Positions 89 through 18,280 of a DNA stretch of 24,000 nucleotides are shown here, piece after piece (positions within the stretch are counted from its first letter, which is position 1; every line of letters starts with the position of its first letter). The stretch is taken from the NCBI GenBank assembly GCA_964562825.1, contig CAZLUZ010000018.1:1-24000 (forward strand). Reading direction: 5' to 3'. Under the pieces are notes generated by a model. It ran no database searches and was not told the DNA's origin. It saw only the letters and a program-made list of their open reading frames with translations. This stretch comes from an uncultured Akkermansia sp. Lineage in GTDB: Bacteria > Verrucomicrobiota > Verrucomicrobiia > Verrucomicrobiales > DEV007. A program made the position numbers and the translations under genes.

Positions 89-1435
89 TTGACCCCGGCG
101 ACCTCGGGGCGGCGCATTTCCCGTTGGGTATTCGAGGAGGGATTCGAGTCTGTCATCCGGCGCACCGTAGCTGAAATATCGGGCCGGATCGACGGGGGGC
201 TGGACACCTTCAGCCTTTCGCGGGCCGAGGATCTGGCCCTGGCCGCCCGCGTCTTCGACGCAACGGGGTCCCGGGATATCGAGGAATTTCTCGCTTATGC
301 CAGGAGCTACACCATGCGGGATCCCGATACCGACAGCGCGGTGCAGGTGATGACGATCCACAAATCGAAAGGGCTCACCTTCGACATGGTCATCCTCCCC
401 GATCTGGAGGGCTACTCCCTGACCGACGTCAGGCGCACCATCGGGGTCATGCGGAACCGAAACCGGGAGGTGGAGTGGGTCTACGATCTGCCGACCAAAG
501 AGATCGCCGATGCCGATAGCAGGCTGAGTGCCTACCGCAAGGATCGCGAGGCCGACGCGGCTTACGAGTCGCTCTGCAAATACTACGTGGCGATGACGCG
601 GGCGAAATATGCGAACTACCTCATCACCAATCCGAGATCGTCGAAATCGCAATCGAAGAATTTCATCATGATGCTGGAGATCGCCCTGGCGGAGGACCGT
701 CACGAGGGCAGGATTGGCCGGCTGCCCGTGGATATCCTCTACCGGAGCCACCTGCCCACCTCCGATCCGAAGTGGTATCTGGGGTATCAGCGGGACGAGC
801 CGCAGGAGGAGGCGAAGCCGCGGCCGGTCGAGGTCTCCGTGCCCGAGACCCGGGAGCGGGTCGACCGGCGAACGCCGAGTCGTTCCGAGAGGCAGGTGAT
901 TACGGCGAGGCTTCTCTTCAGTCGCGACGGGCAAAAAGCCCGGGAGTTCGGCACCCTGGTGCATGCCCTTTTCGAGGACGTCGAGTGGATCGAGGATTTC
1001 GACCCGGTCCGGGCCCGGGAGCGATGGCTGGGATTGCCCGGATGGTCGGGCGACGTGCTTCGGGAGGCGGTGGATCACACGCTGAGTTGCCTCGGCAGCG
1101 AGCCGGTGCGCGGGACCCTGTCGCGGCCGGGGCAGCATGCCGAGTGCTGGCGGGAAAAGAAGTTCGAGATTCTGCTGAACCGAGAGTGGTTGTCGGGCAC
1201 CTTCGACCGGGTCTCCATCGAGCGCGATGCCGCCGGCCACGCGGTGCGTGCTGCGGTCCTGGATTTCAAGACCGACCAGGTCCGGGACGAGGCGGACCGG
1301 ATCGCGGCGATCGAGAAGTATCGGCCCCAGTTGGAATTGTACCGCGACGTGCTGCAGCGTATGACCGGTCTGGCGGCGGACCGCATCGAGAAACGGCTTC
1401 TTCTCACCCGCACGGCGACGGTCATCTCGCTGTGA
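89..1435 (+). CDS. UvrD/AddA(RecB)-type helicase-nuclease, C-terminal part only (SF1 helicase motifs V-VI plus C-terminal PD-(D/E)XK nuclease). The N-terminal ATPase half is not in this ORF, so the gene may be disrupted.
   Basis: The ORF contains VMTIHKSKGLTFDMVILPDL (SF1 motif V-like) and YYVAMTRAKYANYLI (motif VI-like). It ends with VLDFKTDQV ... YRPQLELYRDVL, typical of RecB-family nuclease cores. The track start at 89 is a TTG. The same frame looks coding back to nt 2 but is broken by TAA at 68-70. Confidence 0.7.
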   Translation: MTPATSGRRISRWVFEEGFESVIRRTVAEISGRIDGGLDTFSLSRAEDLALAARVFDATGSRDIEEFLAYARSYTMRDPDTDSAVQVMTIHKSKGLTFDMVILPDLEGYSLTDVRRTIGVMRNRNREVEWVYDLPTKEIADADSRLSAYRKDREADAAYESLCKYYVAMTRAKYANYLITNPRSSKSQSKNFIMMLEIALAEDRHEGRIGRLPVDILYRSHLPTSDPKWYLGYQRDEPQEEAKPRPVEVSVPETRERVDRRTPSRSERQVITARLLFSRDGQKAREFGTLVHALFEDVEWIEDFDPVRARERWLGLPGWSGDVLREAVDHTLSCLGSEPVRGTLSRPGQHAECWREKKFEILLNREWLSGTFDRVSIERDAAGHAVRAAVLDFKTDQVRDEADRIAAIEKYRPQLELYRDVLQRMTGLAADRIEKRLLLTRTATVISL

Positions 1436-1543: not shown

Positions 1544-3346
1544 TTATCTGTCCAGTCCATGGGCCTTGCGGATCGCATGGACCACGCCGGCGCCGAGGAA
1601 GCGATCGCCGACCCGCGGGGCGATCCTGGTCAGATCGACGATCATCAGTCCGTCGAGACAGCCGGAGAACTTGGCGTCGACGTTGAAACCGAGGTAGGTG
1701 GCGTGAAATTTGGTGTATTGGCGGAGGAGGATAGGCACGCCTTTCCCGTCCTGTTCCAGGCTGCCCACCGCCGCGTCGATCTGCTCGATGGTCTCCAGTC
1801 CCTCCGCGATTTCACCGAGGCGGTCCCGAGTCCGACTTGACGTCTCCCGATCCACCGACCGGCTCCCCGGCCGAACGAGGTGGGCGAAATCCGTGGAGAA
1901 AGCGTGTTTTTCCAGAAACTGCACCATGAGATTGCGGGAGACAGGCAGGTAGTTGCCGCTGATGCTGACCGCTCCGAAAGCGTAGCGGAAACGCGGGTTC
2001 CGGCGAAGAAACTCGCCGATTCCGAGGAAAAGCATGCCCAGCGAGAGGTAGCCTTTCTGGCATTCCTCGACCACGAAAGAGCGTCCCAACTCCACGGCGG
2101 GACCGCCCAGGCTGTGAAAAAACTCCCGCTTGTAGCGGAACAGACTGCGGGTGTAGAGGCCCTGCACGCCGCGCCGCTCCGTGATCTCGTCGGATGGCCC
2201 CAGGCGATAGGCCCCGCCGATCTGTCTCGTCTCCCCATTCCACAGGAAGAGGTGCTGGTACCATTGATCGTACTCGTCGAGGTCGATGGCCTGTCCCGTT
2301 CCCTCGCCCACACTGCGGAAGGTCTTCTCCCGCAGTCTGCCGATCTCGCGGAGCACCCGGGGAATTTCGGCGGCCCCCGCGATGAAGCACCGCCAGGCGC
2401 CGCGGGTCAACAGGAGACGATCTTCTGGCAGAGCGGCGATTTCGACCTCCAACCCGTCGGGTTCGACAGGAAGGACAAGCGGTTCGAGCTCCGCCGGGCT
2501 CAGCTTCTTTCCCTCGCGGGTGACCTGCCAGCGTTTCTCCCGCGAAGCGGTGCCGAGAAGTTCCACGTGCCGCTGAACGAACGCGGCCCCTTTTTCGTAA
2601 TCGGCACGCGGGATGCGCCGTGCCGGAATCGGTCGACCGATCTCGATCCGGATGGTCCGGCCGCTCAGCCTTCGGAATTCGCGAAGCAACTGGGCGGTGC
2701 GCAGCAGGGGATGAACCAGTCCCGCGGCATGGAAAAAGACACTGTTGCGTCCCTCGAAATGAACCGGAACCACATCGGCCCCGCTTTTCGCCACCATCTG
2801 GATGAGGTGCTTCGACCACGCCTTTTCCCTGATCCGGCGCTCGGCGAAAGAGAAATGAGCCACTTCTCCGGCGGGAAAGAGACCGATGAGTCCGCCCGAT
2901 TGGAGATGAGCCAGCGCATCGCGCAGGCCGGCGATATTCCTCCGCGCTGCGCCCGCGCCGCCGAAGGGGTCAACGGGAATGAGGATATCCCGGGCCTCCG
3001 GCATGGCGGCGATGAGGGAGTTGCCCAGGAGCCGGGCATCGGAACGCCTGCGCAGCAGGACCTCCGCAAGAATGAGCGCGTCCGCGACCCCGAAGGGATG
3101 ATTGGAGACCACGATGACCGGTCCCTTCGCGGGAATTCGGGCCAGGGCGTCCTCCGTGACCTCGTAGTGGATGCCGAGGTGCGCCAGGCTGTCGGCGAGG
3201 AAAGCTCCTCCCTCCGTGTCATGATTTTCCCGGACCTCCCGGTAGCTTTTGTTAAACCAATCGAAGGCGAGCCACCGGGCCACCGGGCGCACCAGGAAGT
3301 CGGGCATTCGGCTGCCGAGGACGGCGTTTTCGTCAATCGGATTCAT
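1544..3346 (-). CDS. OlsF-like bifunctional lipid acyltransferase: N-terminal PlsC/LPLAT-type O-acyltransferase domain plus C-terminal OlsB-like GNAT N-acyltransferase domain
   Basis: HX4D acyltransferase motif NHPFGVAD (nt 3080-3103) and a FPAGEV block. The C-terminal half has OlsB/hemolysin-like GNAT signatures (DLDEYDQWYQHLFLWN, IGGAYRLG, ELGRSFV). Start is set at ATG 3346 (MNPIDEN...), which forms an ATGA overlap with the upstream stop. The track start at 3472 would overlap the upstream gene by about 130 nt. The amino-acid substrate cannot be read from the sequence. Confidence 0.7.
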   Translation of the reverse strand: MNPIDENAVLGSRMPDFLVRPVARWLAFDWFNKSYREVRENHDTEGGAFLADSLAHLGIHYEVTEDALARIPAKGPVIVVSNHPFGVADALILAEVLLRRRSDARLLGNSLIAAMPEARDILIPVDPFGGAGAARRNIAGLRDALAHLQSGGLIGLFPAGEVAHFSFAERRIREKAWSKHLIQMVAKSGADVVPVHFEGRNSVFFHAAGLVHPLLRTAQLLREFRRLSGRTIRIEIGRPIPARRIPRADYEKGAAFVQRHVELLGTASREKRWQVTREGKKLSPAELEPLVLPVEPDGLEVEIAALPEDRLLLTRGAWRCFIAGAAEIPRVLREIGRLREKTFRSVGEGTGQAIDLDEYDQWYQHLFLWNGETRQIGGAYRLGPSDEITERRGVQGLYTRSLFRYKREFFHSLGGPAVELGRSFVVEECQKGYLSLGMLFLGIGEFLRRNPRFRYAFGAVSISGNYLPVSRNLMVQFLEKHAFSTDFAHLVRPGSRSVDRETSSRTRDRLGEIAEGLETIEQIDAAVGSLEQDGKGVPILLRQYTKFHATYLGFNVDAKFSGCLDGLMIVDLTRIAPRVGDRFLGAGVVHAIRKAHGLDR

Positions 3347-5877
3347 CGAAGAGGGGCTTCGAAGCGTTTGGCGGCCTGATAAGCCTTGATGTTGCCCCAG
3401 AGATCGAGAAAGGAGGGCTCCGGGCAGCCCCGGGCGCGATTCTTCGCCCCGATCTCGTAACAGAGTTCCCATTGCCGGCGCAGGATGGCGAGAGCCTGCG
3501 AAAAGGTGTGGTCCGGATCGTAGATCGCGGTGGCTTCCGAGGTCACCCCGTTGAGTTCCAGGATAAGGATGCCGCGACCGGCCCGGAGTTCCTCCTCAGA
3601 GGGAGCTTTCAGATCAAACCGGCCGAAGTGAAATCCGGCGAAAGAGCGCGCGATCCGGTCGATTTCCCGGGTCAGGCGGGGGGTGATCAGGTCATCTCCC
3701 GAGAGAAAAAGCGCACCGCGGGAATGCGTTCCCAGCCGACTCAGGAGCAATCTCTCTCCCTGGGCGGGAACGGTCCCCAGGTGCTGCCGGAACTGGCGAA
3801 GAAAAAAATCGGCCATGAGACGGGCCCGCGGATGGGACAGGATGAGTTCCTCGATCGTGCTCCTGCCATCTCCCACCACGGAGACCGATTTCTTTCTCGT
3901 GATGGAAAAGATGCGGCCCTCGGCGTCCTCCGGGTGCCGGTAGTAGAAGACTCCGAACTCGGGACCCTCGACATACTGCTGGGCGACGACGGGCTCGGTC
4001 GCACCGGAAACGGCGAAGTATTCCTCCACCTCGCGGTCGCTATGGACGATGGCCACGCCCTTTCCCCGTTCCCCGCAAACGGGTTTGAGCACGATCGGAT
4101 AGCGCGGGTCGGAAATACGGTGCATAAATTCTTTCACCTCCGCGGCGGACGACACCAGGGCGAACGCCGGCAGGTTGCCGCTCTCCCGCAGAGCCTCCAG
4201 GCTGATTCGTTTCGGTTCGTGGGCGAAGCCTCCGCAGGGGAGAGCCGGATTCGCCGCCGCGAACACCGTGGCCGAGCGGTGCCGCAGGGCGAGAAACACC
4301 GCGTGGGGCAGCAAGGCCAGGTAGAGAATCCAGGCGGGCCAGAACTCCCATCGGGTCCGTCGATCCCAGCGTGCGGCGAAAAGCCGTCTCTGCCGCGGGT
4401 CGGAGAGGATCGATACCCCACGCACCACGAGGAGGAGCGCCCCGACGAGACCGAGCAGACCCACGATAATGTAGTTCTCGTGGTCCTCGAACCAGGGCAG
4501 GAACACGTGTCCGAAGACGGCCGAAAGCCCCACCAGGATCGGTGTCCAGATGGCGGCGGCGAGGAGAAACCAGAAGAGGAACTTTTTCAGGCAGACCCCG
4601 GCGGCACCCATTCCCACGTAGACGGGAAGTCGCGAACCCGGGATGAAGCGGGTGGCGATGATGACCTTGGCCCCGTTGGCGTCGAGCCATCGGCGACCGG
4701 AATCGATCTTGTCCTTTGGGGCGATCCAACGCAGGGGGGCGCGTTCCAGGGCGCGCGGACCGAGCCATTTTCCGAGGAGGAAAAGAGTGATATCTCCCAG
4801 AAAGATCCCCGCGAGGCAGCCGGCCACGGCGGTGGCGAAGTGGAGAACGCCCCGGGACGTCAGCAGACCGCCCGAAATGCAGGCGAGGTCCTCGCTGGCC
4901 AAGGTCGCGATGCCGAGGAGCAACATGGTCGCCACTGCCCCGGCGGGCGATCCGTCGAGTCGCCTCAATTCCGCGGGCCTTTCCGCATCCACCACCCGCG
5001 AAAGCGTCGCTCCGCTGCGCCGGGGACCCGGTTCCCGAGCAAATCGGGCGATCGGGGCGGCAACTTCCGCGGGGCGCCGCATCAGATCGATGTGATTTCC
5101 TCCCTCGATCCAGACCAGCTGACTCTGGGGAACGATGCGGTGGTGCTCTCGTGCGGCCGATCCGGGCACGAGACGGTCGTGTTCTCCTTGGATGATCAGG
5201 GTGGGTCCGGTCCAGGTCTCGAGCAGGCTCCGCAGGGGGCGTTGATCGGTCTCGTAGAAGTTTCGCGCGTAGTTCCGGTTGAGCATCGCGCTGTCCCACC
5301 ATCCGAAATGGGGAACGCCTTCCTGGATGAGGGTGATCGCGGCGAGTTGAAGGCCGTGGATAGCGTGGTTGAGCACATAGTCGCCCAGCAGTTCGTGTTC
5401 CTGGACCCCGATGGAGGCGAGCAGGACCAGACCGGAGATCCGCTCGGGAGCCAGGTGGGCCAGATGGATGGCCACGCCTCCCCCCATGGAGTAGCCCACC
5501 GGAATCACGTTCTCCAGGTCCCTTTGTCGGAGCCATTTGGCGAGGTAATGGGCATGCGCCTCGATGGATAGATCCTCGACCCGTTGCTCCGATCGCCCGA
5601 AGCCGGGCAGATCGGGGATCAGGAGGGGAAACTCCCCTTCCAGTTGCGCGGCGAGGGGCGCGAAGATGCCCGGCATGGTCGGGCTCCCGTGAATGAGCAG
5701 CAGGGTGGGGCCTTCGGCGGCTCCCGATTCGCGAAAGGCCAGCCTGTCGCCCAGCACGGTGGTGGCTTCCTGCCCCGGTAGCGGACCCGGAGCATCCTGG
5801 ACCTGCCGGTAGACGTGGGAGAGTGCCAGCAGAATCACGTAGACGAGAAGGATCACCCTTTTCCAGCGGCCTTTCAT
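3343..5877 (-). CDS. Triple-fusion membrane protein: N-terminal TM anchor + alpha/beta hydrolase domain, central DedA/VTT (SNARE-associated) membrane domain, C-terminal ATP-grasp ligase domain (844 aa)
   Basis: Hydrolase: LLLIHGSPT, nucleophile elbow GYSMGGG (Ser codon 5488-5490), later GEHDRLVP and GGNHIDL as candidate Asp/His. DedA: LGDITLFLLGKWLG and VIIATRFIPGSRLPVYVGMGAAG with flanking hydrophobic helices. ATP-grasp: PIVLKPVCGERGKGVAIV, VVAQQYVEGPEFGVFYY, ILELNGVTSEATAIYD. Start is set at ATG 5877 (MKGRWKRVILLVYVILLAL...), in an ATGA overlap with the upstream stop. The 109-aa N-terminal extension in the track is Arg/Pro/Gly-rich and overlaps the upstream gene. Confidence 0.75.
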   Translation of the reverse strand: MKGRWKRVILLVYVILLALSHVYRQVQDAPGPLPGQEATTVLGDRLAFRESGAAEGPTLLLIHGSPTMPGIFAPLAAQLEGEFPLLIPDLPGFGRSEQRVEDLSIEAHAHYLAKWLRQRDLENVIPVGYSMGGGVAIHLAHLAPERISGLVLLASIGVQEHELLGDYVLNHAIHGLQLAAITLIQEGVPHFGWWDSAMLNRNYARNFYETDQRPLRSLLETWTGPTLIIQGEHDRLVPGSAAREHHRIVPQSQLVWIEGGNHIDLMRRPAEVAAPIARFAREPGPRRSGATLSRVVDAERPAELRRLDGSPAGAVATMLLLGIATLASEDLACISGGLLTSRGVLHFATAVAGCLAGIFLGDITLFLLGKWLGPRALERAPLRWIAPKDKIDSGRRWLDANGAKVIIATRFIPGSRLPVYVGMGAAGVCLKKFLFWFLLAAAIWTPILVGLSAVFGHVFLPWFEDHENYIIVGLLGLVGALLLVVRGVSILSDPRQRRLFAARWDRRTRWEFWPAWILYLALLPHAVFLALRHRSATVFAAANPALPCGGFAHEPKRISLEALRESGNLPAFALVSSAAEVKEFMHRISDPRYPIVLKPVCGERGKGVAIVHSDREVEEYFAVSGATEPVVAQQYVEGPEFGVFYYRHPEDAEGRIFSITRKKSVSVVGDGRSTIEELILSHPRARLMADFFLRQFRQHLGTVPAQGERLLLSRLGTHSRGALFLSGDDLITPRLTREIDRIARSFAGFHFGRFDLKAPSEEELRAGRGILILELNGVTSEATAIYDPDHTFSQALAILRRQWELCYEIGAKNRARGCPEPSFLDLWGNIKAYQAAKRFEAPLR

Positions 5878-6605
5878 GGCCTGGAGGAGGGAAAAGGAGA
5901 CTTCACCCCCAGCCGGGTCGTCGCCCCCCACGCCCAGTCCGGTGCCGTGGCGTAGGAATAGGCGGCGCGATTTCCCCGCCCGATTTTGATCCGGCTGAGG
6001 CTCACGGTATGCGCGTCCTCCCGGGACATGATGGTGGAGAAAGCGGAATGGCTGGCATCGAACCAGCGATGGAAGGACTCGCCACCACCGGTTTGGCGAT
6101 AGGCGTCGCGACGCGCGGCCGTCACCTCGGCGGTCTCGAAAGACGAAGTTGTCAGGGGTAGCTCGGCCGGGCGCCGTTGGAGCTGGCCAGCATCCCACCG
6201 CCACAGGCCGGCTGTCCGGGAGTTCAGTGCCACAAAAAGAAAGGGTCGGAACCGTCCTTTCTCCACCCTATCCGCGAGCCAATCGCCCGAGGCTTCGGGG
6301 TCCGCCAGCAAGGATGCGGCCTCCACGACGAGTCTGCCGCGGCTGGTGTAATCTCGTCCATCGGGATCGGGGAGAGGAGAACCGCTGTAGTGGTTGAGCA
6401 GGGCAAAGCAGGTTCCCGCCTCGTTCACCGCCAGCCAGGAGCCTCCGCCTTCGGGGTCAATGCAGGAGATCCAGCGGAAGTCACCATCCGGCCGTTGCTG
6501 GACGAGGGGACCGGTGGCCGCGGCACGCGACCTCGATTCGTCTCGGTTGAACCAGATGGTGAGAGTTTCCCCGGTCCGGGACCGTTGCCAGCTCATGGTG
6601 CACAT
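5874..6605 (-). CDS. NRDE family protein (TANGO2-like, Ntn-hydrolase-like fold with N-terminal Met-Cys)
   Basis: Begins MCT..., carries the eponymous motif WFNRDESRSR, then GGGSWLAVNEAGTCFALLNHY. This follows the pattern MC...NRDE..R...GG(T/S)WL......L(T/L)N of the TANGO2/NRDE family. The stop overlaps the next start (ATGA at 5874-5877). Confidence 0.85.
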   Translation of the reverse strand: MCTMSWQRSRTGETLTIWFNRDESRSRAAATGPLVQQRPDGDFRWISCIDPEGGGSWLAVNEAGTCFALLNHYSGSPLPDPDGRDYTSRGRLVVEAASLLADPEASGDWLADRVEKGRFRPFLFVALNSRTAGLWRWDAGQLQRRPAELPLTTSSFETAEVTAARRDAYRQTGGGESFHRWFDASHSAFSTIMSREDAHTVSLSRIKIGRGNRAAYSYATAPDWAWGATTRLGVKSPFPSSRP

Positions 6606-6638: not shown

Positions 6639-7181
6639 TCAGGCGGACAAGGACTGCCGCTGCGCCGTTTCTCTCCGGAACTGAACCGTGGAAGGAGCGA
6701 GTCCGAACTCCTCATCGAGGACGATTCCCTCGCGCCGGCACATGATTGCGAGGATGGCGTAGTGATGCACCGCGTGGCTGAGGACGAACTGGAGTTCGCG
6801 CCCGATGGAGGAGTCCTGCCATTCGTCGGGATCATCCGAGGAAGCGTTGGACCGAACCCGGCAACGCATTCCGGGATCGATCCGGAGGCGGAGATCCTCG
6901 AGTAGTGCGATGGTTTCGTCGAAAGCTGCGATGGCGGCGACCAGCTTCGTCTCCACCACGATATCGCGTTCCCGGGCGTCGTAGTCGACGAGGTAGGGCG
7001 CCTCCATACCGGCGACAAGCCTCTGGTAGTGTTCGATGATGTGGCGGCAGTGGCCGCCGAAGGAGGCGCCGAGGAACTCGGCAGAGACGTGCGCGTACCG
7101 AGCTTGATCGATCCTCCGGAGCAGGGCCGAGGCCTGACCGAGACAGACGATGTTTGCCGCAAACAAATCGGGTCGGTTCAT
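6639..7181 (-). CDS. DinB-like (DinB_2 / four-helix-bundle metal-binding superfamily) protein
   Basis: About 180 aa with the His pattern of DinB-type bundles (GGHCRHIIEHYQ near the N-terminus, LSHAVHHYAILAIM near the C-terminus). Start is set at ATG 7181 (MNRPDLF...). It lies 33 nt upstream of the NRDE gene on the same strand. The family call is by eye only. Confidence 0.5.
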   Translation of the reverse strand: MNRPDLFAANIVCLGQASALLRRIDQARYAHVSAEFLGASFGGHCRHIIEHYQRLVAGMEAPYLVDYDARERDIVVETKLVAAIAAFDETIALLEDLRLRIDPGMRCRVRSNASSDDPDEWQDSSIGRELQFVLSHAVHHYAILAIMCRREGIVLDEEFGLAPSTVQFRRETAQRQSLSA

Positions 7182-7264
7182 GGTGCAAAAAATGCCACGG
7201 GGCGAATCTCCGCACACGGGCGGGTGTTGTCACCAGAAATTCTTTCCCCGGGTAGGTCCGATTG

Positions 7265-8044
7265 TCAGGGCAGATCGTCGATGCGCCGGATCCCCGTTTC
7301 TGGGTCGGTGGCGACGAATAGCAGGCTGCCACATCGGCTCACCTTTCCCGTCACCTCAACCGGTTCTGCGACGAGGTCCAGAATCTGTTCGTTGATCGCC
7401 TCGCCGTTGACGCCCGTCATGATGAGCTTGGTCACGCTGCCATCCTCGCCGCGGAGCAGCAGCATGGGCGGGACACCTCCCTTGATGCAGTGGATGGCGC
7501 AGGCGCGGTGCGGTTTGAGCACCCCGGGATTCATCACGCCGAGGTAGCATTTGCTGTCCACGATCTCGCCTCTGAGGGTCTGGGACCCGAAGTCCACGAA
7601 TTCGCCCAGACTGACATCGGCGGGCCGGGTCGATTTCTGCACCGATCCGTCGATCACCTCCAGCATGGCGTTTCCCCCATCGTGGATCAGCGTGCCTCTG
7701 AGGTCCACCGCCTCCAGGTGAAAGGTCTCCGCCACCTCGGGGTCGAAGCCGTACTTCAGCGGACGCACCAGGAGGAACACCGACTGTTGGCTATCGGGTT
7801 CCGGCTCCGGGGTGAGGAGCATGGGGACCGGGTTGGCGACGAGGACCCCGGAAAATTCGCGGACGTTGCCGAACTGGAACTGTCCGATGCCGAGAGTGCT
7901 CTGAAAGAGCGGGAATACCGCCGCGAGAAGCATTGCCGCCCCGAGAATGAGGCCGGTGCGCAGCCGGAGGAAGCCGGCGATACCCGGAGGGGGCGTTTTC
8001 TCCCAACCGATGAAAAATTCGGGTGCGTTCTTTTCTGTGCTCAT
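7265..8044 (-). CDS. Hypothetical membrane-anchored protein with an extracytoplasmic domain carrying a C-x16-C-x3-C motif
   Basis: The N-terminus has RLR followed by one hydrophobic helix (GLILGAAMLLAAVFPLF). The C-terminal part contains SKCYLGVMNPGVLKPHRACAIHCIKGGVPP and a fourth Cys (VSRCGS). No family was recognised. The start ATG 8044 overlaps the stop of the Rieske/FRD gene (ATGA at 8041-8044). Codon third positions are GC-rich. Confidence 0.6.
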   Translation of the reverse strand: MSTEKNAPEFFIGWEKTPPPGIAGFLRLRTGLILGAAMLLAAVFPLFQSTLGIGQFQFGNVREFSGVLVANPVPMLLTPEPEPDSQQSVFLLVRPLKYGFDPEVAETFHLEAVDLRGTLIHDGGNAMLEVIDGSVQKSTRPADVSLGEFVDFGSQTLRGEIVDSKCYLGVMNPGVLKPHRACAIHCIKGGVPPMLLLRGEDGSVTKLIMTGVNGEAINEQILDLVAEPVEVTGKVSRCGSLLFVATDPETGIRRIDDLP

Positions 8045-9075
8045 GAGATGCTTGCCGGTTCAATGGGGGTGCCCGCCGGATGCGGGGTGGGGTGGACATA
8101 AACCGTACCATTGGCGATACGGACGTCGAAAGTGGGAATTTTTTCGGTGAAAGGTGCCGGGGACGTTCCATCCTCGGGGCGATACTGATAACCATGCCAG
8201 GGGCAGGTCAGGCATCCGTGAATGAATTTTCCCTCGGCGAGGGGGCCATTCTGGTGCTGACAGACTCCCGAGACAGCCGAGACCTTTCCCTCGTACTTCA
8301 CCACCGCCACCTTCTCCCCGCCGAGCACCACTCCGTGGGCCGCGTTTTCCGGGATGTCGGCCACCGCGCAGACTTCGACGAATCCGTCCTCGGTGGGATG
8401 ATTCGCGAGGGGACGGTCCCGGGGAAACTCGCGAAATCCGGCGGTGAGGTGGAGGCCGGCGATGGCGAGGAAGCCCGCGATGAGCAGGCCGGTGTAGAGG
8501 GGGTGCGTCTCGGACTGGAGCACCCCGAAAGCGACGTGAACGACCAGCAGCGCATAGGCCACATACACACCCATGTGCAGCGATTTCCACACCGGTGCGG
8601 TCAGGTTGGCCAGCCAGAAATCATGGCTCGTCGCCGCCATGGTGAAGAGGATGAGGAGGGCGAAAAAGCCAAAGGCCTGGAAGGGGAAGGCGCTCATGGT
8701 TGCGCCCGCATCCGTCGTGAAAATGGTCAGGATGGGGTTCGAGTCCGATCCGACGTGGTAGGTGATGACGGCAAGGGCGGAGTGAAAGAAAGCCAGGAGG
8801 AACATGGTCACCCCGAGGTGGCGCCGATTGTAGAGGATGGGCAGCCACCTGCGGTCCAGCCGAGCCAGGGGCCCCACCATGAGGATGAAGTGCAGGAGGA
8901 TGATCGCGCCCGAACCGAAGGCGCGGATCAGCATGATCTCTATGGTGGCGGAGGGACTGATCGCGAGACTGATTCCGGTGAAGAGGGCGACGTAGAGGAT
9001 GGCGGCGACAGCCAGCCAGAGATCGAAGCGCAGCTTGAAGGGATTCCATCCCACGGCTTTGTAGGAAACACTCAT
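8041..9075 (-). CDS. Ferric-reductase-like six-TM (heme b type) domain fused to a C-terminal Rieske [2Fe-2S] domain
   Basis: Six hydrophobic helices, with paired His in helices 3 and 5 (RRHLGVTMFLLAFFH; HMGVYVAYALLVVH), as in the FRD/NOX/MsrQ family. The C-terminus carries both Rieske boxes: CQHQNGPL (about 8241-8265) and CPWHGYQY (about 8190-8213). Confidence 0.8.
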   Translation of the reverse strand: MSVSYKAVGWNPFKLRFDLWLAVAAILYVALFTGISLAISPSATIEIMLIRAFGSGAIILLHFILMVGPLARLDRRWLPILYNRRHLGVTMFLLAFFHSALAVITYHVGSDSNPILTIFTTDAGATMSAFPFQAFGFFALLILFTMAATSHDFWLANLTAPVWKSLHMGVYVAYALLVVHVAFGVLQSETHPLYTGLLIAGFLAIAGLHLTAGFREFPRDRPLANHPTEDGFVEVCAVADIPENAAHGVVLGGEKVAVVKYEGKVSAVSGVCQHQNGPLAEGKFIHGCLTCPWHGYQYRPEDGTSPAPFTEKIPTFDVRIANGTVYVHPTPHPAGTPIEPASIS

Positions 9076-9219: not shown

Positions 9220-9474
9220 TCAGGGTCTGGAATTCGCGATCCGACGGTGCCGAGACTTTTCCTCAGGGGGCGTTTCCCGGCTGACCCACCGTTTCAGGAG
9301 CAGAGGCCAGAAGATCGCCGCGCCGGGAATGATGATGAGTCGGAAGCTCCAGGTGCCCGACTTCGCCGATGGATCGATGGCGCCGGCTCCACCGAAGCAG
9401 GAGAAGACGATGGCGAAAAGCAAGCCGAGGAGCAGGTAGATGCCGAGGAGGGATAGAAAGATCTCAAGTAGCAT
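9220..9474 (-). CDS. Small two-TM membrane protein, 84 aa
   Basis: MLLEIFLSLLGIYLLLGLLFAIVFSCF... and ...FRLIIIPGAAIFWPLLLKRW form two hydrophobic helices. Start is set at ATG 9474, which overlaps the malic-enzyme 3' end by 11 nt. The longer track version (start 9600) would run about 135 nt into the malic enzyme gene. Confidence 0.55.
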   Translation of the reverse strand: MLLEIFLSLLGIYLLLGLLFAIVFSCFGGAGAIDPSAKSGTWSFRLIIIPGAAIFWPLLLKRWVSRETPPEEKSRHRRIANSRP

Positions 9475-10669
9475 GGTTCGAGGGAGTTTGCCCGCCATCG
9501 CCACTGGCGGCCTGACAGACGGCTCGGGCCACGATGGGAGCGATGGTGGAATCGAGCGGGGAGGGGACAATCCGTTCCGGAGACGGTTCCGCCACCGCAT
9601 CGGCCAGCGCGCGGGCCGCGGCGATCTTCATCTCGGGCGTGATGCGCGGCGCCTGGGCGTCGAGCGCGCCCCGAAAGATTCCGGGGAAGGCGAGCACGTT
9701 GTTCACCTGATTGGGGAAATCGCTGCGTCCGGTGCCGAGCACCGCGGCACCCCCGGCCCTGGCTGCTTCGGGCATGATTTCGGGGATCGGGTTGGCCATC
9801 GCCAGGATGATGGAATCCGGGGCCATCCGGCGGATATCTTCGGTGCGGAGGATGTCGCCTACGCTGACTCCGACGAAGACGTCAGCTTCGTGAAGCACCT
9901 CCGAAAGACTGCCTTTGCGGTTTGATGGGTTGGTGTACCCGAGGAGGTCGCGCTTCCGGGGGTTCAGGTCTTCCCGGTCGCGGTGGATGGCGCCCCGGCT
10001 GTCGCAGATGATCACGTCCGCCACGGGTGTGCAGGTGTCCGCAGACTGGTCGATGCATCGGAGCAGTTTCGCGATGGCGGTTCCGGCCGCGCCTGCTCCG
10101 TTGATGACCACCCTCAGATTTTCCACGGGTTTGCCCACGACCCGAGCCGCGTTGAGCATGGCGGCGAGGAGCACAATAGCGGTGCCGTGCTGGTCGTCGT
10201 GGAAGACCGGGATGCCCAGATCCTGGAGTCTCTCCTCCACCTCGAAGCACCGGGGTGCCGAGATATCCTCCAGGTTGATTCCGCCGAACACCGGCGCGAT
10301 CCGGCGAACCGTATCCACGACCTCATCGGCGTCCTGGGTGTCGAGGCAGATGGGAAAAGCGTCGATGTTGGCGTATTGCTTGAAAAGCAGGGCCTTCCCC
10401 TCCATCACCGGAATAGCCGCGTAAGGTCCGATGTTGCCCAGGCCGAGAACGGCCGAACCGTCACTGACCACGGCGACGGCATTTCGCTTGATCGTCAGAT
10501 CGCGCACCTTTTCGGGATGTCTCGCGATCTCCTCACAGGGCCTCGCCACCCCAGGGGTGTAGGCGATGGAGAGATCGTCGATGGTTTCGACGGGAAGTTT
10601 CGGAGTCACCGAGATTTTGCCTCGGAGCTGTTCGTGAATGAGCAGGGAGCGTTCGCCAAAATCCATCAT
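9464..10669 (-). CDS. NAD(P)-dependent malic enzyme (short prokaryotic form, oxaloacetate-decarboxylating malate dehydrogenase)
   Basis: Family-typical blocks run throughout: LSIAYTPGVARPC, VVSDGSAVLGLGNIGPYAAIPVMEGKALLFK, FGGINLEDISAPRCFEVE, VFHDDQHGTAIV, INGAGAAGTAI, LAMANPIPEI, NNVLAFPGIFRGALD. Confidence 0.93.
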   Translation of the reverse strand: MMDFGERSLLIHEQLRGKISVTPKLPVETIDDLSIAYTPGVARPCEEIARHPEKVRDLTIKRNAVAVVSDGSAVLGLGNIGPYAAIPVMEGKALLFKQYANIDAFPICLDTQDADEVVDTVRRIAPVFGGINLEDISAPRCFEVEERLQDLGIPVFHDDQHGTAIVLLAAMLNAARVVGKPVENLRVVINGAGAAGTAIAKLLRCIDQSADTCTPVADVIICDSRGAIHRDREDLNPRKRDLLGYTNPSNRKGSLSEVLHEADVFVGVSVGDILRTEDIRRMAPDSIILAMANPIPEIMPEAARAGGAAVLGTGRSDFPNQVNNVLAFPGIFRGALDAQAPRITPEMKIAAARALADAVAEPSPERIVPSPLDSTIAPIVARAVCQAASGDGGQTPSNHAT

Positions 10670-10684
10670 CTACAGAGTGCAAGG

Positions 10685-12664
10685 TTACACGAGGAGAGCA
10701 TCTGTCATCACCTCGATGGTGGCGGGGCCGGGATAGTCCCGGCAGACGGCGAGCGCCTCATCCAGCTGCTGGCGTTCCGAGACTCGAATCCCTTTACCGC
10801 CGCAGAGATTCACGTAGTCCGCAAAGTTCGGATTGTGCAGCCCGGTCTTCCAGACCTCGAAGTGTCCCGCCCGCTGTTCTTTCGAAATTTTGCCCAATTC
10901 ACCGTTGTGCATGAGGATGTGGGTAATGTTCATCCCGTATTTCACCGCGGTGAGGACTTCCATCATGTATTGGGCGAACCCGCCATCCCCGGTCACCGCC
11001 CAGACGGGTCGTCCGGCATAAGCGGGATCGTCCTCCTGGGTGGCGGCCCACGCGCCCATCGCCGCCGGGTATCCGAACCCGATCGATCCCAGGTAACCGG
11101 ACATGAGGACCGCCTGCCGGTCGCTGCTCTCGAAGTAGCGCCCGAAGGAGTAAGTGTTGTTGCCCACGTCGACGGCGATGATGGCATCCTCCTGGCACTG
11201 ACGGGTCATCGCGTCGAACAGGGCGGCGGCACTGATCCCTTTACCGGAGTCGTCGGGGATGCGGCTGGCCTTTTCCTTTCTCCAGATTTCCCAGCGACGG
11301 GCTACCTCCTCGCGTATCCCGGGACGCGGCACCGCGTTGGGAAAACGTTGCCCGAGGATGTCCAGGGTCCGGCCGATCTCCCCGAGAACGGGCAGATCGA
11401 CGGAGTGGAACTTGCCCAGTTGCATGGGATCGAAATCGATCTGAATCGTCGGCATGTAGCTGGCGATGCCGGTGTGGTTGGAAAAGGATGCGCCGATGGC
11501 GATGATGAGGTCGCACTCATTCATGAACCAGCTGGCGATCGGTGTCCCCGACCGTCCCAGAACGCCACAACCCAGCGGATGCGAATCCGAGATCAGGCCT
11601 TTTCCCTTGAAGGTGGTGAGCACAGGAATTTCGAGTCTTTCGGCGAACCGGATGATGGACTCCATGTGAAATCGTGCTCCGTGCCCTACGATGATGATGG
11701 GCCGTTGCGCCTCTCGGATGCGGTTTTCCGCCGCGGCTATGCTGGCCTCCGACGGGGCCACCGAGAGGTCGGCGAGGCGTCCGTCGGGGTGGCCGGGCTT
11801 GCCCTCCGTATTCTCGATTTCCTGAACCTCATTGGGGAGCACGAGGGTCACCGGGTTCCGGGTGAGGAGCGCGTTCTTGAGAGCCAGCGACATCAGTTCG
11901 CCGTGGCGGGAATCCGCGTAGACGGTGTGGTTGAAGGCCGAGACATCCTCGAAAGCGTTGGCCAGGTCGATCTCCTGGAAAGCCCCCGGTCCGAGCACCT
12001 GGGTGTCGATCTGTCCCGACAGCGCGAGGAGTGGCGCCCGATCCACTTTCGCGTCGTAAAGGCCGGTCATCAGGTTGGTTGCTCCGGGGCCCGCGATGGA
12101 GAAACAGGCGGCCGGTCTGCCGGTCAGTTTGGCGTAGGCGGAGCAGGCAAAGGATGCGGCTCCCTCGTGCCGGATGCCGTAAAACCGAAGGTTGCCCTGC
12201 TCCTCCTGGACCCGCAGCGCATCGGCCATGCCCAGGTTGGAGTGGCCCACCATGCCGAAGACCTGCCTGACCCCCCAATTCACCATGGTCTCGGCGAGGA
12301 CATCCGAGTTGGTCCGAGCCCTCTCGGGTTCCGGTTCCAGACCGACATAGATGCCGTCCTCCCGCTCCTCGACAGGATAGGTGATGAGACGGTCGTCGTG
12401 CCCGCCGGGCGACTGACCGGTGAGAGGATCAAAATCCCAACCGTGCCAGGGACAACGCAGCCAGCAACGACCCTCCGCCCCATCCTCGATCGAACCCTCG
12501 CCGAGCGGACCACCCTGGTGGGGGCAGGCGTTATCGAGCGCGCCGTACCGGCCCTGGTATTTGGAAAGGGCTATGGTGCGGGTGCCCGCGGAGATGGTGG
12601 TCACCCGTCTCTCCTCCAATCCGGGAGGGTCGAGGACTTTGTGCCAGACGAGTGCTTCGCTCAT
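10685..12664 (-). CDS. Rieske [2Fe-2S] domain fused to a thiamine-pyrophosphate enzyme of the pyruvate oxidase / acetolactate synthase superfamily
   Basis: N-terminal Rieske boxes CPHQGGPL (about 12504-12536) and CPWHGWDF (about 12431-12470). A three-domain TPP enzyme follows: Pyr domain VFGMVGHSNLGMADAL...IRHEGAASFACSAYAKLTG...GPGATNL, a middle domain IIIVGHGARF...TTFKGKG, and PP domain GSIGFGYPAAMGA...VTGDGGFAQYMMEVLTAVKYGMNITHILMHNGELGKI. The substrate is not deducible by eye. Confidence 0.85.
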   Translation of the reverse strand: MSEALVWHKVLDPPGLEERRVTTISAGTRTIALSKYQGRYGALDNACPHQGGPLGEGSIEDGAEGRCWLRCPWHGWDFDPLTGQSPGGHDDRLITYPVEEREDGIYVGLEPEPERARTNSDVLAETMVNWGVRQVFGMVGHSNLGMADALRVQEEQGNLRFYGIRHEGAASFACSAYAKLTGRPAACFSIAGPGATNLMTGLYDAKVDRAPLLALSGQIDTQVLGPGAFQEIDLANAFEDVSAFNHTVYADSRHGELMSLALKNALLTRNPVTLVLPNEVQEIENTEGKPGHPDGRLADLSVAPSEASIAAAENRIREAQRPIIIVGHGARFHMESIIRFAERLEIPVLTTFKGKGLISDSHPLGCGVLGRSGTPIASWFMNECDLIIAIGASFSNHTGIASYMPTIQIDFDPMQLGKFHSVDLPVLGEIGRTLDILGQRFPNAVPRPGIREEVARRWEIWRKEKASRIPDDSGKGISAAALFDAMTRQCQEDAIIAVDVGNNTYSFGRYFESSDRQAVLMSGYLGSIGFGYPAAMGAWAATQEDDPAYAGRPVWAVTGDGGFAQYMMEVLTAVKYGMNITHILMHNGELGKISKEQRAGHFEVWKTGLHNPNFADYVNLCGGKGIRVSERQQLDEALAVCRDYPGPATIEVMTDALLV

Positions 12665-13164: not shown

Positions 13165-14277
13165 TTACAGGGTTGCTGGAAAAATTTCTCCGCTTTCCTC
13201 GATTTCCTGGTGCAACCGGAGTTGGCCGCAGGCGGCATCGATGTCGTGTCCCTTCTCCCGGCGCAGGGTGGCGGGGATGCCCGCCTCTTTGAGGATGTCG
13301 AGGAATGCCTGTTGGACGCGGGGTTCCGGTCGATTCCAGGGCAGTCCCTCCACCGCGTTGTAGGGGATCAGGTTCACCTTGGCTTCCACCGCCCGGCAGC
13401 GGGATGCCAGGAGTCGGGCCTGCTCCGGCGCGTCATTGATGCCCTCGATAAGAATGTATTCGAAGGTGATCTTCTGCTTTCGCTTCGCCCGCCACACTTC
13501 GAGCGCGGCGAAGAGGCGTTCCAGGGGGTATTTTCGATTCACCGGCATGATGCGCTCCCGGACCTCGTCACTCGCCCCATGCAGCGAGACGGCCAGCCGG
13601 ACCTGGAGGGGGTTGTCGGCCAGTTTTTCGATCGCGGGGGCCAGCCCGCTGGTCGATATCGTCATGCGACGCGCCCCGATCTCCATTCCCCAGGGAGCGT
13701 TGAGAATCTCGAGAGCGCGAGAGAGGTTCTTCAGGTTGGCGAGCGGTTCTCCCATGCCCATGAACACGATGTTCTGCACCGATTCGCCACTTTCGGCTTC
13801 CACGGTGAGAACCTGGGACACGATCTCGGCGGTCGTGAGGTTGCGGGTCAGCCCGGCTAGTCCGGAGGCGCAGAATTTGCAGTCGAAGGCGCACCCCACC
13901 TGGCTCGAAACGCAGAGCGTGCGCCGGTCGCTCTTCTCGCCGAATAGTGCCTCGGAGGCCGGGATGAGAACGGTCTCGATGAGTCTTCCATCCCGGAGTC
14001 GGAAAAGGAATTTTCGGGTGGTGTCGCGGGACCCCACGACGCGCACGGTCTGGAGGTAGCCGACATCAAAGCGGTCCCCGAGCCATTTTCGAAGAGGGTG
14101 ACTCAGATTGGTCATCGCCCCGAACGCTCTGGCCCTCTTGCGGTAGATCCACTCGACGATCTGCCTGGCGCGGAAGGCCGGGTGACCCTCCGCCTGGAGT
14201 TGTTCCGTCCAGTCGTTCAGCGTGAGACCGGTCGCAGTCTGGCGGTTGGATTCGCTGGGGAGGGAGGAGGGCGGCAT
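13165..14277 (-). CDS. rlmN: 23S rRNA/tRNA (adenine-C2)-methyltransferase RlmN, radical SAM
   Basis: FRARQIVEWIY N-terminal domain, radical-SAM cluster CVSSQVGCAFDCKFCASG, FMGMGEPLAN, conserved C-terminal DIDAACGQL. The start may be ATG 14277 (MPPSS...) or the track start 14307. Confidence 0.93.
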   Translation of the reverse strand: MPPSSLPSESNRQTATGLTLNDWTEQLQAEGHPAFRARQIVEWIYRKRARAFGAMTNLSHPLRKWLGDRFDVGYLQTVRVVGSRDTTRKFLFRLRDGRLIETVLIPASEALFGEKSDRRTLCVSSQVGCAFDCKFCASGLAGLTRNLTTAEIVSQVLTVEAESGESVQNIVFMGMGEPLANLKNLSRALEILNAPWGMEIGARRMTISTSGLAPAIEKLADNPLQVRLAVSLHGASDEVRERIMPVNRKYPLERLFAALEVWRAKRKQKITFEYILIEGINDAPEQARLLASRCRAVEAKVNLIPYNAVEGLPWNRPEPRVQQAFLDILKEAGIPATLRREKGHDIDAACGQLRLHQEIEESGEIFPATL

Positions 14278-14501
14278 GATGCGGCGTGGAGCGAGGGAAC
14301 AAACCATGATTTGACAAAGTTCGCAGGCAGAATTCCCTTGAATCGATGGCCCGATCCCCGTCGCCGCTCGTCACCGTTTTCCGCGGGGGCTTTTTCTATC
14401 TCTCTCGGACGGCCGATGTCTTTCCAGGGGAGGCGGCGGAAGTCGCGATCGGGGGAGATGGAAGAGGGGACGCGCTCTCGGCGCTGGGCAAGTGATCGCC
14501 G

Positions 14502-18062: not shown

Positions 18063-18280
18063 CGGGAGACACCAGAAACTTCCGGCCGGCGCAGCCAAGG
18101 CCAGGGGAAAGACCCGGGACGTCGATTTCGAAAATTTTCCGGTCGCAAGTGTGCCTTGCCGCGAGGATCAGGCAAGTCCCGGATGGGTCCCTCTCGACAG
18201 GCCGGACCGCTCGTCCGGCTGAGGACTTGCCCCCGGGGCGGCCCTTGTCGTAGTCTGCACGACTCGTGACAAAAACCGAC

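Follow-up and report, generated by a model that had tools for sequence, protein, structure and literature searches.

MprF is an aminoacyl-phosphatidylglycerol synthase fused to a flippase, and AcvB/VirJ, encoded together with it, is the periplasmic hydrolase that turns its product over. The role proposed here for a single fusion protein would, by analogy, share the logic of MprF and AcvB: cytoplasmic modification of a head group, a fused translocator and an extracytoplasmic hydrolase of the α/β type. The fusion is not homologous to them, since it uses an ATP-grasp domain (ATP, not aminoacyl-tRNA) and a DedA domain instead of the MprF flippase domain; it also has all three parts in one chain, and its lipid is probably not phosphatidylglycerol but an aminolipid made by OlsBA or OlsF. 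The phospholipase A PlaF of Pseudomonas aeruginosa (PDB 6i8w), which is anchored in the inner membrane, likewise has an N-terminal single transmembrane (TM) helix followed by an α/β-hydrolase and aligns with the fusion over its whole 310 residues at 23% identity, but it is a stand-alone protein. The fusion resembles the UptA/COG0586 undecaprenyl-phosphate flippases in a predicted core of two re-entrant loops and TM helices and in conserved acidic and Arg-x5-Arg residues. PAP2 fusions of UptA-type DedA proteins are a precedent for a DedA joined to an enzyme acting on the lipid that is moved (PMC10127716); neither a hydrolase nor an ATP-grasp domain is among the reported DedA fusion partners. 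The CphA G domain, CphA2, GshF and Ddl have the same fold and catalytic residues as the ATP-grasp domain of the fusion and are its best structural and sequence matches, at only about 20% identity; their chemistry is the formation of an acyl-phosphate on an α-carboxylate, which an amine then attacks. ATP-dependent amide formation and an α/β-hydrolase also occur in aminolipid metabolism with OlsH/OlsI and the cerilipin taurine transferase, as proposed for the fusion, but OlsH is a GH3 enzyme and not an ATP-grasp, and the OlsI model is not matched by the hydrolase of the fusion. The gene for the ATP-dependent addition of taurine, an amine, to the ornithine-lipid carboxylate in cerilipin is still unidentified (PMC12971839), so the activity proposed below would fill a known gap in kind.

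The window analysed is a stretch of 24,000 nucleotides from an uncultured Akkermansia sp. (contig CAZLUZ010000018.1), in which no tRNA genes were found. The fusion gene lies on its minus strand at 3343..5877 and codes, in 844 codons plus a stop, for a TM anchor, an α/β-hydrolase, a DedA/VTT module, a membrane hairpin and an ATP-grasp ligase. A first-pass annotation had proposed a single uninterrupted polypeptide of 844 residues without giving the strand; translation and full-length homologues agree with it on the minus strand, and a plus-strand reading of 3343-5877 was rejected, being interrupted by stops. The start codon is the ATG at 5877, which overlaps the stop of the upstream gene (ATGA), and homologue alignments begin at the corresponding Met1. 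In a mechanical ORF list the frame runs further, up to a GTG at 6204 (953 residues), an extension backed by no homologue. The region has 63% GC and the opposite strand over the gene holds an ORF of 699 residues, so that ORF length alone proves nothing; the reality of the frame rests on sequence homology. More than 100 full-length homologues with the same architecture come from independent assemblies, so the domains are separated by neither a stop nor a join. An assembly or frameshift artefact was rejected on these grounds, and the earlier reservation, that homologues might always occur as three separate genes with stops at the domain borders, fell away. The AF2 model of the whole protein has a pLDDT of 89.7.

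An alignment-based scan gathered full-length homologues from at least 588 species genomes in at least seven phyla, annotated only as "alpha/beta fold hydrolase". At E <= 1e-30 and 50% identity the family falls into about 1,500 clusters; it is frequent in abundant phyla of soil and aquatic habitats, its ATP-grasp domain being mostly invisible to Pfam. Shorter natural variants also occur, with the order DedA-ATP-grasp or anchor-ATP-grasp. The architecture had at first been noted as not characterised, and we found no description of a hydrolase-DedA-ATP-grasp protein in the literature; it is, however, widespread, so that it is real and uncharacterised but not rare. The three modules of the fusion, which all look catalytically competent, stand in one intact polypeptide, a member of a large conserved family. 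All three domain calls of the first-pass annotation held, with catalytic residues kept across a 36-sequence alignment of fusion homologues, from which residue invariance was judged throughout.

The protein begins with a signal-anchor helix, TM1 (residues 3-26, 5800..5871, minus strand; DSSP helix 3-26), whose N-terminus is predicted to be inside and has a net charge of +2.3 across the family. The α/β-hydrolase domain that follows (residues 36-281, 5035..5772, minus strand), predicted to be periplasmic, matched Pfam Abhydrolase_1 above gathering (E 2e-25, 90 bits); Foldseek gave esterases, PlaF and ABHD6 (E 1e-12), and a PDB sequence search also gave matches. GYSMGGG, in which a serine nucleophile had been read, corresponds to residues 128-134 and contains Ser130 of a Ser130/Asp234/His262 triad, in which the serine is kept in at least 90% of the 36 sequences and the two other residues are invariant. 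The α/β-hydrolase fold, the GxSxG elbow and the Ser-Asp-His triad are thus all present, in agreement with that reading. The cap region is family-specific and highly conserved. The domain scored 26.6 bits (E 4e-6) with the NCBIfam equivalog model of OlsI, whose cut-off is 385, and is not assigned to OlsI.

The DedA/VTT module (residues 311-492, 4402..4947, minus strand) was delimited from VTT_dom, the UptA model, invariant residues, helix pattern and charge bias. VTT_dom scored above gathering (E 1e-13, 52.1 bits vs 33.9), which places the module in the DedA/VTT family, as first called. Its nearest model is UptA/COG0586 (E 8e-14), at a score of 52 vs a cut-off of 250, and no solved-structure relative was found by sequence. 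We parsed the module into re-entrant loop 1 (E329/D330), a TM helix, a cytoplasmic helix, re-entrant loop 2 (R410, P413, G414, R416) and two TM helices; the helices predicted by AF2 (311-327/329-341 and 416-425) and the charge bias fit two re-entrant loops flanked by TM helices. E329, D330 and D362 are invariant in the 36 sequences, and so are R410 and R416, six residues apart. The module differs from UptA in lying far below its cut-off, in the spacing of the acidic residues (E329/D330...D362, unlike E39/D51 of UptA) and in its genomic context, which is that of aminolipids and not of the cell wall.

An Arg-rich amphipathic helix and a hydrophobic hairpin, S9/S10, come next (residues 494-532, 4282..4398, minus strand), with a net charge of +5.5 and both flanks basic; we assigned them as a monotopic anchor of the ATP-grasp domain. 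In the stand-alone variants P0158 and P0168, which have a basic N-terminus, no membrane element other than the hairpin is present, which rules out a full crossing for it. The ATP-grasp domain itself (residues 535-844, 3346..4275, minus strand) was recognised from NCBIfam, a PDB sequence search, the domain model, Foldseek and invariant residues. In Pfam it remained below threshold (RimK, E 3e-3), and in NCBIfam it matched a region of cyanophycin synthetase with E 6e-12 and 44 bits vs a cut-off of 877; the PDB sequence search matched the region too. The first-pass annotation had named a failure of profile searches to support the DedA or ATP-grasp calls as a ground for withdrawing them, and had asked which ATP-grasp clade is nearest. 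Both calls found support, the former above gathering and the latter through NCBIfam, the PDB search and structure, and the nearest clade in Foldseek was cyanophycin synthetase: the domain model (pLDDT 91) gave the CphA1 G domain as top match (E 3e-12, TM 0.60), followed by GshF, Ddl, LysX and PsnB, and both its central and its C-terminal subdomain have the ATP-grasp fold. The key residues are K598, GERGxGV, Q633, E640, R753, D755, E774 and N776; K598, G602/R604/G605, R753, D755, E774 and N776 are invariant in the 36 sequences and in the domain alignment, which provides the ATP-binding Lys, the Gly-rich loop and the Mg-binding Asp and Glu-x-Asn of the ATP-grasp superfamily. The domain had also been described as complete-looking. 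This stands for the fold and the catalytic residues but not for completeness, as the canonical N-terminal (pre-ATP-grasp) substrate subdomain is missing: profile position ~13 aligns to Ddl ~115, the start corresponds to about CphA1 190, and the domain model has one strand only before the VLKP strand. The predicted monotopic anchor S9/S10 takes the place of this subdomain. Only the G-domain core of CphA1 aligns, and the fusion, which lacks the N and M domains, differs in both respects from CphA-type ligases.

The hydrolase is predicted to be in the periplasm and the ATP-grasp domain in the cytoplasm, because of the charge bias, lipobox variants and a match to the topology of TMEM41B. In every homologue TM1 has a basic flank on its N-terminal side, in line with the positive-inside rule; variants P0132 and P0128 carry a lipobox directly ahead of the DedA module, which puts the N-side of DedA outside; and the DedA segments match the SCAM-verified topology of TMEM41B one by one, in a four-crossing parse. 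These lines agree with the two-sided arrangement suggested at first pass. The linker ahead of re-entrant loop 1 is slightly basic (+1.1), which counts against it.

The genes around the fusion, which the first-pass annotation had not seen as an aminolipid operon, are in the window all on the minus strand. Downstream lies an OlsF-like bifunctional aminolipid synthase (1544..3346; O-acyltransferase plus OlsB-type N-acyltransferase), whose probable start, ATG 3346, overlaps the stop of the fusion (ATGA). It carries Pfam Acyltransf_2 and Acetyltransf_5, that is, both OlsF domains, and aligns end-to-end with NCBIfam OlsF (375 bits, E 8e-112, cut-off 620). Upstream, sharing the ATGA at the fusion start, is a TANGO2/NRDE-like Cys-Ntn protein (5874..6605; MCTMSW..., FNRDE; Pfam TANGO2 E 1e-9), preceded by a DinB_2-like protein (6639..7217; independent gene calls; Pfam DinB_2 E 8e-5, just below gathering), a conserved protein with an N-terminal TM segment (7265..8044) that has no match in Pfam or NCBIfam, and a protein with a ferric-reductase-type (MsrQ-like) haem TM domain and a Rieske [2Fe-2S] domain (8041..9075; Pfam Ferric_reduct and Rieske; MsrQ E 7e-10). 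We surveyed 80 loci of the family, 56 of them with adequate flanks. The conserved same-strand order is Rieske/haem-TM protein, which heads the cluster, unknown TM protein, OlsB, OlsA, DinB_2, TANGO2 and fusion; the first two are kept together in 22 of the 80 loci, and the DinB_2-like gene is a same-strand neighbour in 48. OlsB was found in 53 and OlsA in 45 of the 80. Among the 56 adequately flanked loci, OlsB, OlsA or OlsF lies within 6 kb of the fusion in 44, almost always on the same strand, and OlsB and OlsA both stand beside it in 32; OlsB/OlsA are not nearby in 12, mostly Opitutales/Verrucomicrobiota. The TANGO2-like gene is immediately upstream of the fusion in 29/80 loci, with Cys2 and NRDE kept in 28 of these 29, and translational coupling to the ATP-grasp gene is seen in the window and at L082, L083 and L086, as well as ahead of a DedA-less ATP-grasp. 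A hydrolase-less variant is located in the same operon, where OlsBA is retained. This OlsB/OlsA/OlsF context probably names the lipid on which the fusion acts.

As a plausible but tentative reading, we propose that the fusion works as a trifunctional enzyme of the inner membrane in a pathway for amino-acid lipids of the ornithine-lipid type, where it forms an amide by its ATP-grasp domain, flips the product by its DedA module and hydrolyses it outside. In the inner leaflet, the product of OlsF or OlsBA would be an N-(acyloxyacyl) amino acid whose α-carboxylate is free. The ATP-grasp domain, pinned by its hairpin to the cytoplasmic membrane surface, would phosphorylate a carboxylate, most probably that of the lipid head group, and join it to an amine, which could be ammonia, an amino acid or a compound like taurine; the head group of the aminolipid would thereby be extended or amidated. 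The acidic residues and the Arg-x5-Arg signature are kept in the UptA-like DedA module, which would carry this lipid to the outer leaflet, where the TM-anchored Ser-Asp-His hydrolase may deacylate, trim or transacylate it and so control its level or form. The nearest relatives of the ATP-grasp domain (CphA G domain, GshF, Ddl) all work on an amino acid with a blocked N, activating its α-carboxylate and adding an amine, and by analogy we infer that the aminolipid carboxylate would be the same chemical handle. It counts against this reading that the DedA module is nearest to undecaprenyl-phosphate transporters and not to any known aminolipid transporter, that OlsB/OlsA are missing from the surroundings of the fusion in the 12 loci mentioned above, and that some homologues do without the hydrolase or the DedA module. 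No link of ATP-grasp or DedA proteins to aminolipids was found in the literature.

The TANGO2-like neighbour could give the ATP-grasp step another outcome, a plain head-group amidation, in which the Cys-Ntn protein would either exchange the amine or act as a glutaminase, in the manner of class-II amidotransferases, and provide ammonia, with DedA and the hydrolase acting as above; the carboxamide formed would remove the negative charge of the lipid. ATP-grasp enzymes with a glutaminase partner have a precedent in carbamoyl-phosphate synthetase, and the coupling of the two genes and the retention of Cys2 and NRDE are in favour. The TANGO2 fold is indeed that of a Cys-Ntn hydrolase, but it is structurally closest to hydrolases of N-acyl amides and to acyltransferases and not to glutaminases (PMC13044924), and TANGO2 adjoins the fusion in a minority of the loci; we consider this amidation unlikely. 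A similarly small probability goes to the absence of any vectorial pathway, with catalysis all cytoplasmic or interfacial and DedA a mere membrane platform or lipid-binding site, or with the hydrolase and the ATP-grasp domain acting on different substrates, for example in phospholipid remodelling and aminolipid tailoring. Since the hydrolase and DedA are dispensable in some homologues, as the DedA-ATP-grasp and anchor-ATP-grasp variants show, the three activities need not act sequentially on one molecule, and S2/S3 (311-341) might conceivably span the whole membrane with a kink. The basic TM1 flank, the lipobox variants and the TMEM41B parse speak against such an arrangement, and the invariance of the DedA transport residues argues for a working translocator.

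The two remaining explanations change the pathway itself. It is improbable that the fusion is an alternative aminolipid synthase parallel to OlsBA, in which the ATP-grasp domain would form the N-acyl amino acid bond, like OlsH, and the hydrolase would be the O-acyltransferase, like OlsI. OlsHI, an ATP-dependent amide ligase with an α/β-hydrolase acyltransferase in ornithine-lipid synthesis, is a precedent (PMC12493201), and there is the weak OlsI match; that match, however, is far below its cut-off, the hydrolase is predicted to be periplasmic, away from acyl-ACP or acyl-CoA, and hydrolase-less variants keep OlsBA. As OlsA is found in most OlsB-positive loci and both accompany the fusion so often, the fusion is no substitute for OlsBA, and a replacement of OlsA by the hydrolase was rejected as a general explanation. 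A very slight chance is left to a cell-envelope polymer function apart from aminolipids, in which a UptA-type flippase, a Ddl-like peptide ligase and an esterase would act on a polyprenyl-linked or peptidoglycan-related substrate. UptA is the best model for the DedA module, the ATP-grasp domain is Ddl-like in fold and a class-A PBP gene lies downstream at one locus; against this, the UptA score is far from the cut-off, the conserved neighbours are OlsB/OlsA, DinB_2 and TANGO2 and not cell-wall genes, and the N-domain by which Ddl binds its first D-Ala is lacking.

The trifunctional reading bears on how aminolipids are tailored and how they cross the inner membrane. If it is true, ATP-grasp chemistry on a lipid head group would be a new enzymatic step in aminolipid biology, and the substrate range of DedA transporters would be widened. 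OlsF and the fusion form a compact, genetically testable system. It is conceivable, though doubtful, that the whole cluster (OlsB/OlsA or OlsF, DinB_2, TANGO2-like protein and fusion) makes and exports head-group-modified aminolipids of a class not yet described, in Verrucomicrobiota, Acidobacteriota, Gemmatimonadota, Planctomycetota and Rhodothermia, with the ATP-grasp domain as the first known case in its superfamily of work on a membrane lipid, DedA as a dedicated aminolipid flippase and the TANGO2 homologue as an enzyme that hydrolyses or transfers the N-acyl amides of these lipids. The presence of a catalytically intact-looking bacterial TANGO2 homologue beside genes for N-acyl amino acid lipids makes the TANGO2 substrate question testable in bacteria, and if the proposal is true, the TANGO2 family, which includes a human disease gene, would gain its first native substrate class.

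The gene lies on the minus strand (5877..3343) and forms the single uninterrupted frame proposed by the first-pass annotation, with 844 codons and a stop; the plus-strand reading of 3343-5877 was ruled out, its translation being full of stops. The start is the ATG at 5877, which shares an ATGA with the stop codon of the gene upstream, and homologues align from the Met encoded there (alignment of 36 sequences). At a GC content of about 63%, both strands carry long ORFs in the mechanical ORF list, so that ORF length alone is no evidence for the gene and homology is the evidence. Two antisense ORFs lie within it, 3472-5571 (+) and 4643-5095 (+). Their clusters extend over 73 and 61 of the 80 homologous loci compared, neither ORF gave a family match, and rather than genes they are most likely side effects of high GC and codon conservation.

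Homologue clusters matching the fusion numbered 1,391 at E ≤ 1e-5. The best 120 of these 1,391 measure 709-922 aa, with coverage of 83-100% and identity of 41-61%, and their names go no further than 'alpha/beta fold hydrolase' or 'carboxylesterase/DedA'. When one genome per species was scanned with a profile, at least 588 carriers came up, listed in Verrucomicrobiota, Acidobacteriota, Gemmatimonadota, Planctomycetota, Bacteroidota/Rhodothermia, KSB1, Calditrichota, Myxococcota and Desulfobacteraceae; among the matches listed, the named relatives closest to the window belong to Verrucomicrobiales. In an exhaustive search, the ATP-grasp profile matched 1,522 representatives at E ≤ 1e-30. The family is modular, and full fusions, not three separate genes, are its dominant form; an assembly or frameshift artefact is excluded by full-length homologues across many clusters and species. 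We also found genuine DedA-ATP-grasp proteins, about 530 aa long (homologues P0134, P0146, P0152 and P0164), ATP-grasps with only an Arg-rich helix and a hydrophobic segment (P0158, P0168), and proteins whose DedA module is immediately preceded by a lipobox signal (P0132, ...LVSC; P0128, ...LGCS). This subfamily series, from lipoprotein-signal-DedA-ATP-grasp to stand-alone ATP-grasp with a monotopic anchor, could help to dissect the roles of the modules.

The three domain calls, hydrolase, DedA and ATP-grasp, are backed by Pfam, NCBIfam and PDB sequence searches and by structure comparison, and the protein belongs to three superfamilies, alpha/beta-hydrolase, DedA/VTT and ATP-grasp. Abhydrolase_1 (residues 57-274, E 2e-25) and VTT_dom (residues 339-452, E 1e-13) scored above the Pfam gathering threshold, and the ATP-grasp part gave sub-threshold matches only (RimK, E 3e-3). 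NCBIfam matched the cyanophycin synthetase ATP-grasp core at E 6e-12 and the DedA transporter UptA model at E 2e-12, the DedA module lying far under the UptA equivalog score. Cyanophycin synthetase and OlsI were rejected as the identity of the fusion on NCBIfam scores. In the 36-sequence alignment, Ser130 of the hydrolase triad (in GYSMGGG) is at least 90% conserved, Asp234 and His262 are invariant and the cap segment is unusually conserved. Also invariant are E329, D330, D362, R410, P413, G414 and R416 of the DedA module, and K598, G602, R604, G605, Q633, E640, R753, D755, E774 and N776 of the ATP-grasp.

The AlphaFold2 model of the full-length protein is confident (pLDDT 89.7, pTM 0.67); the ATP-grasp alone reached a pLDDT of 91 and a pTM of 0.88. 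Its nearest structural clade is the G domain of cyanophycin synthetase 1 (E 3e-12, TM 0.60), followed by CphA2, GshF and Ddl, and PDB sequence searches agree with this ranking. The domain had been described as complete-looking, which holds for the fold and the catalytic residues and fails for the canonical N-terminal substrate-binding subdomain, missing since the profile alignment begins at about Ddl residue 115 and the model has a single strand before the VLKP strand. The hydrolase part resembles esterases, PHB depolymerase and ABHD6 in structure and PDB sequence searches, with PlaF, a TM-anchored phospholipase, matching over its whole length. A PDB search for the DedA part found no related solved structure.

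We parsed the topology from charge counts and the helices of the AlphaFold2 model. Family-wide net charges of +2.3 at the N-terminus, +5.0 at residues 373-412 and +5.5 at residues 491-512 suggest that these regions are cytoplasmic; the loop at 459-468 ranges from neutral to acidic. TM1 (residues 3-26) would thus be followed by the hydrolase outside, a re-entrant loop, RL1 (311-341, with E329/D330 at the break), a transmembrane helix (347-377) leading to a cytoplasmic helix, a second re-entrant loop, RL2 (410-430, carrying R410/R416), two helices (430-465 and 467-492) joined by a short outside loop, a basic helix with a hydrophobic hairpin (494-532), and the ATP-grasp inside. The proposed placement of hydrolase outside and ATP-grasp inside fits the charge counts, and the lipobox variants P0132 and P0128 independently put the N-side of RL1 outside. 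The parse also agrees segment by segment with the order that cysteine accessibility has verified for TMEM41B (N-in, TMH, trans side, RL1, TMH, cytosol, RL2, TMH, trans side, TMH, C-in; Okawa et al.). In stand-alone ATP-grasps a strongly basic N-terminus precedes the hydrophobic segment, which must be monotopic because crossing would put an ATP-dependent domain in the periplasm.

Over the 80 loci, every ORF lying up to 10 kb from the gene was clustered and HMM-mapped. This revealed a conserved same-strand cluster of ferric-reductase-TM/Rieske, unknown TM protein, OlsB-like, OlsA-like, DinB_2, TANGO2-like and fusion genes, a pattern confirmed by independent gene calls and precomputed Pfam. OlsB occurs in 53/80 loci, OlsA in 45, DinB_2 in 48, TANGO2 in 29 and Rieske in 22. 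The OlsB-like representative matches NCBIfam OlsB at E 6e-42 (Pfam Acetyltransf_5) and the OlsA-like one NCBIfam OlsA at E 3e-36 (Pfam Acyltransferase). OlsB and/or OlsA lie within 6 kb in 43 of the 56 loci with adequate flanks (both in 32), and the window raises the aminolipid-linked count to 44, its downstream gene being a fused OlsF-like synthase (1544..3346 (-), 600 aa; in-frame ATG at 3346, sharing an ATGA with the fusion stop codon). This synthase scores 375 bits (E 8e-112) against NCBIfam OlsF, below the equivalog cut-off of 620 bits, and also matches the glycine lipid models GlsB/GlsA; loci L003, L010 and L024 have the same arrangement as the window. The mechanical ORF, 1544-3472 (-), starts at 3472, within the fusion gene. 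Around the hydrolase-less variant the order is DinB_2, TANGO2, DedA-ATP-grasp, OlsB, OlsA, and coupling to a TANGO2-like gene persists in an ATP-grasp that lacks DedA. About one fifth of the loci, mainly Opitutales, have DinB_2, TANGO2 and the fusion alone. The link between the family and aminolipid genes is strong and previously unreported.

The DinB_2-like gene (6639-7217 (-) in the window), second to OlsB in frequency among neighbours, has its place in the cluster between OlsA and TANGO2/fusion. The region 7265-9075 (-) codes for an MsrQ-like ferric-reductase-type haem TM domain in fusion with a Rieske domain, then a conserved TM protein with no Pfam or NCBIfam match; this pair opens the cluster in 22 of the 80 loci and could provide the lipid with a redox or hydroxylation module, or be served as a client by a haem-handling TANGO2. 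Further along, a 659-aa protein (10685-12664 (-)) consists of a Rieske [2Fe-2S] domain at the N-terminus fused to a thiamine-pyrophosphate enzyme with all of its N, M and C domains, to our knowledge not a common architecture, with a malic enzyme gene (9464-10669) downstream on the same strand. A 1,214-aa FG-GAP/ASPIC-UnbV repeat protein (18266-21910 (+)), a UvrD_C/PD-(D/E)XK helicase-nuclease (89-1435 (+)) and the ordinary rlmN-like (13165-14307) and Ham1 (16714-17325) genes appear unrelated to the cluster.

The fusion is thus shown to be an intact three-module protein whose catalytic residues are conserved and whose gene is linked in an operon with those of aminolipid synthases. Its specific chemistry on aminolipids is a tentative hypothesis, to which we give slightly less than even credence. 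OlsBA and OlsF produce N-acylated amino acids whose alpha-carboxylate is free, and the nearest ATP-grasps (CphA G domain, GshF, Ddl and RimK-type enzymes) activate such a carboxylate, then add an amine. With a membrane anchor in place of the carboxylate-holding N-subdomain, the substrate probably comes from the bilayer. At the inner leaflet, the ATP-grasp would form an amide on the aminolipid head group in an ATP-dependent manner, with an amino acid, a taurine-like amine or ammonia as partner; the UptA-like DedA module would then transfer the modified lipid across the membrane, and the anchored hydrolase would act on it at the periplasmic face. In COG0586 proteins, transport has been tied to the acidic and Arg residues that are invariant in the DedA module (Todor et al.). 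The ATP-dependent transfer of taurine to ornithine lipid, described without a known gene (2026 review, PMC12971839), is a lead for the ATP-grasp.

Amidation of the head group assisted by TANGO2 is an unlikely alternative: the TANGO2/NRDE homologue (MCTMSW..., FNRDE) shows translational coupling with the ATP-grasp gene (5874-6605 (-) in the window; also L082 7275-7991, L083 7270-8004, L086 6303-7004 and L085 1-150), and the start-adjacent Cys and NRDE motif are kept in 28 of 29 TANGO2 neighbours, but most loci have no TANGO2 among the neighbours. We regard a non-vectorial reading as equally improbable. A parallel aminolipid synthase of the OlsHI type is less probable still, weakened by the OlsB and OlsA that usually accompany the fusion, and a role in undecaprenyl-phosphate or cell-wall metabolism is the least probable of these.

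The architecture was suspected to be uncharacterised, and our literature search found no description of a hydrolase-DedA-ATP-grasp protein, nor any link of ATP-grasp or DedA to aminolipids; reported DedA fusions involve PAP2, rhodanese and pyridine-nucleotide oxidoreductase, with no mention of hydrolase or ATP-grasp (Todor et al.). This is a real, common and uncharacterised enzyme family. It resembles a known kind, the fused lipid head-group modifier and flippase, and its logic would be similar to that of MprF and AcvB, although the parts are unrelated. Human TANGO2, the product of a disease gene, has the fold of a Cys-Ntn hydrolase but no known substrate (PMC13044924), and it binds acyl-CoA (PMC11867700); in view of the bacterial operon for N-acyl amino acid lipids, N-acyl-amide lipids are a candidate class of substrates.
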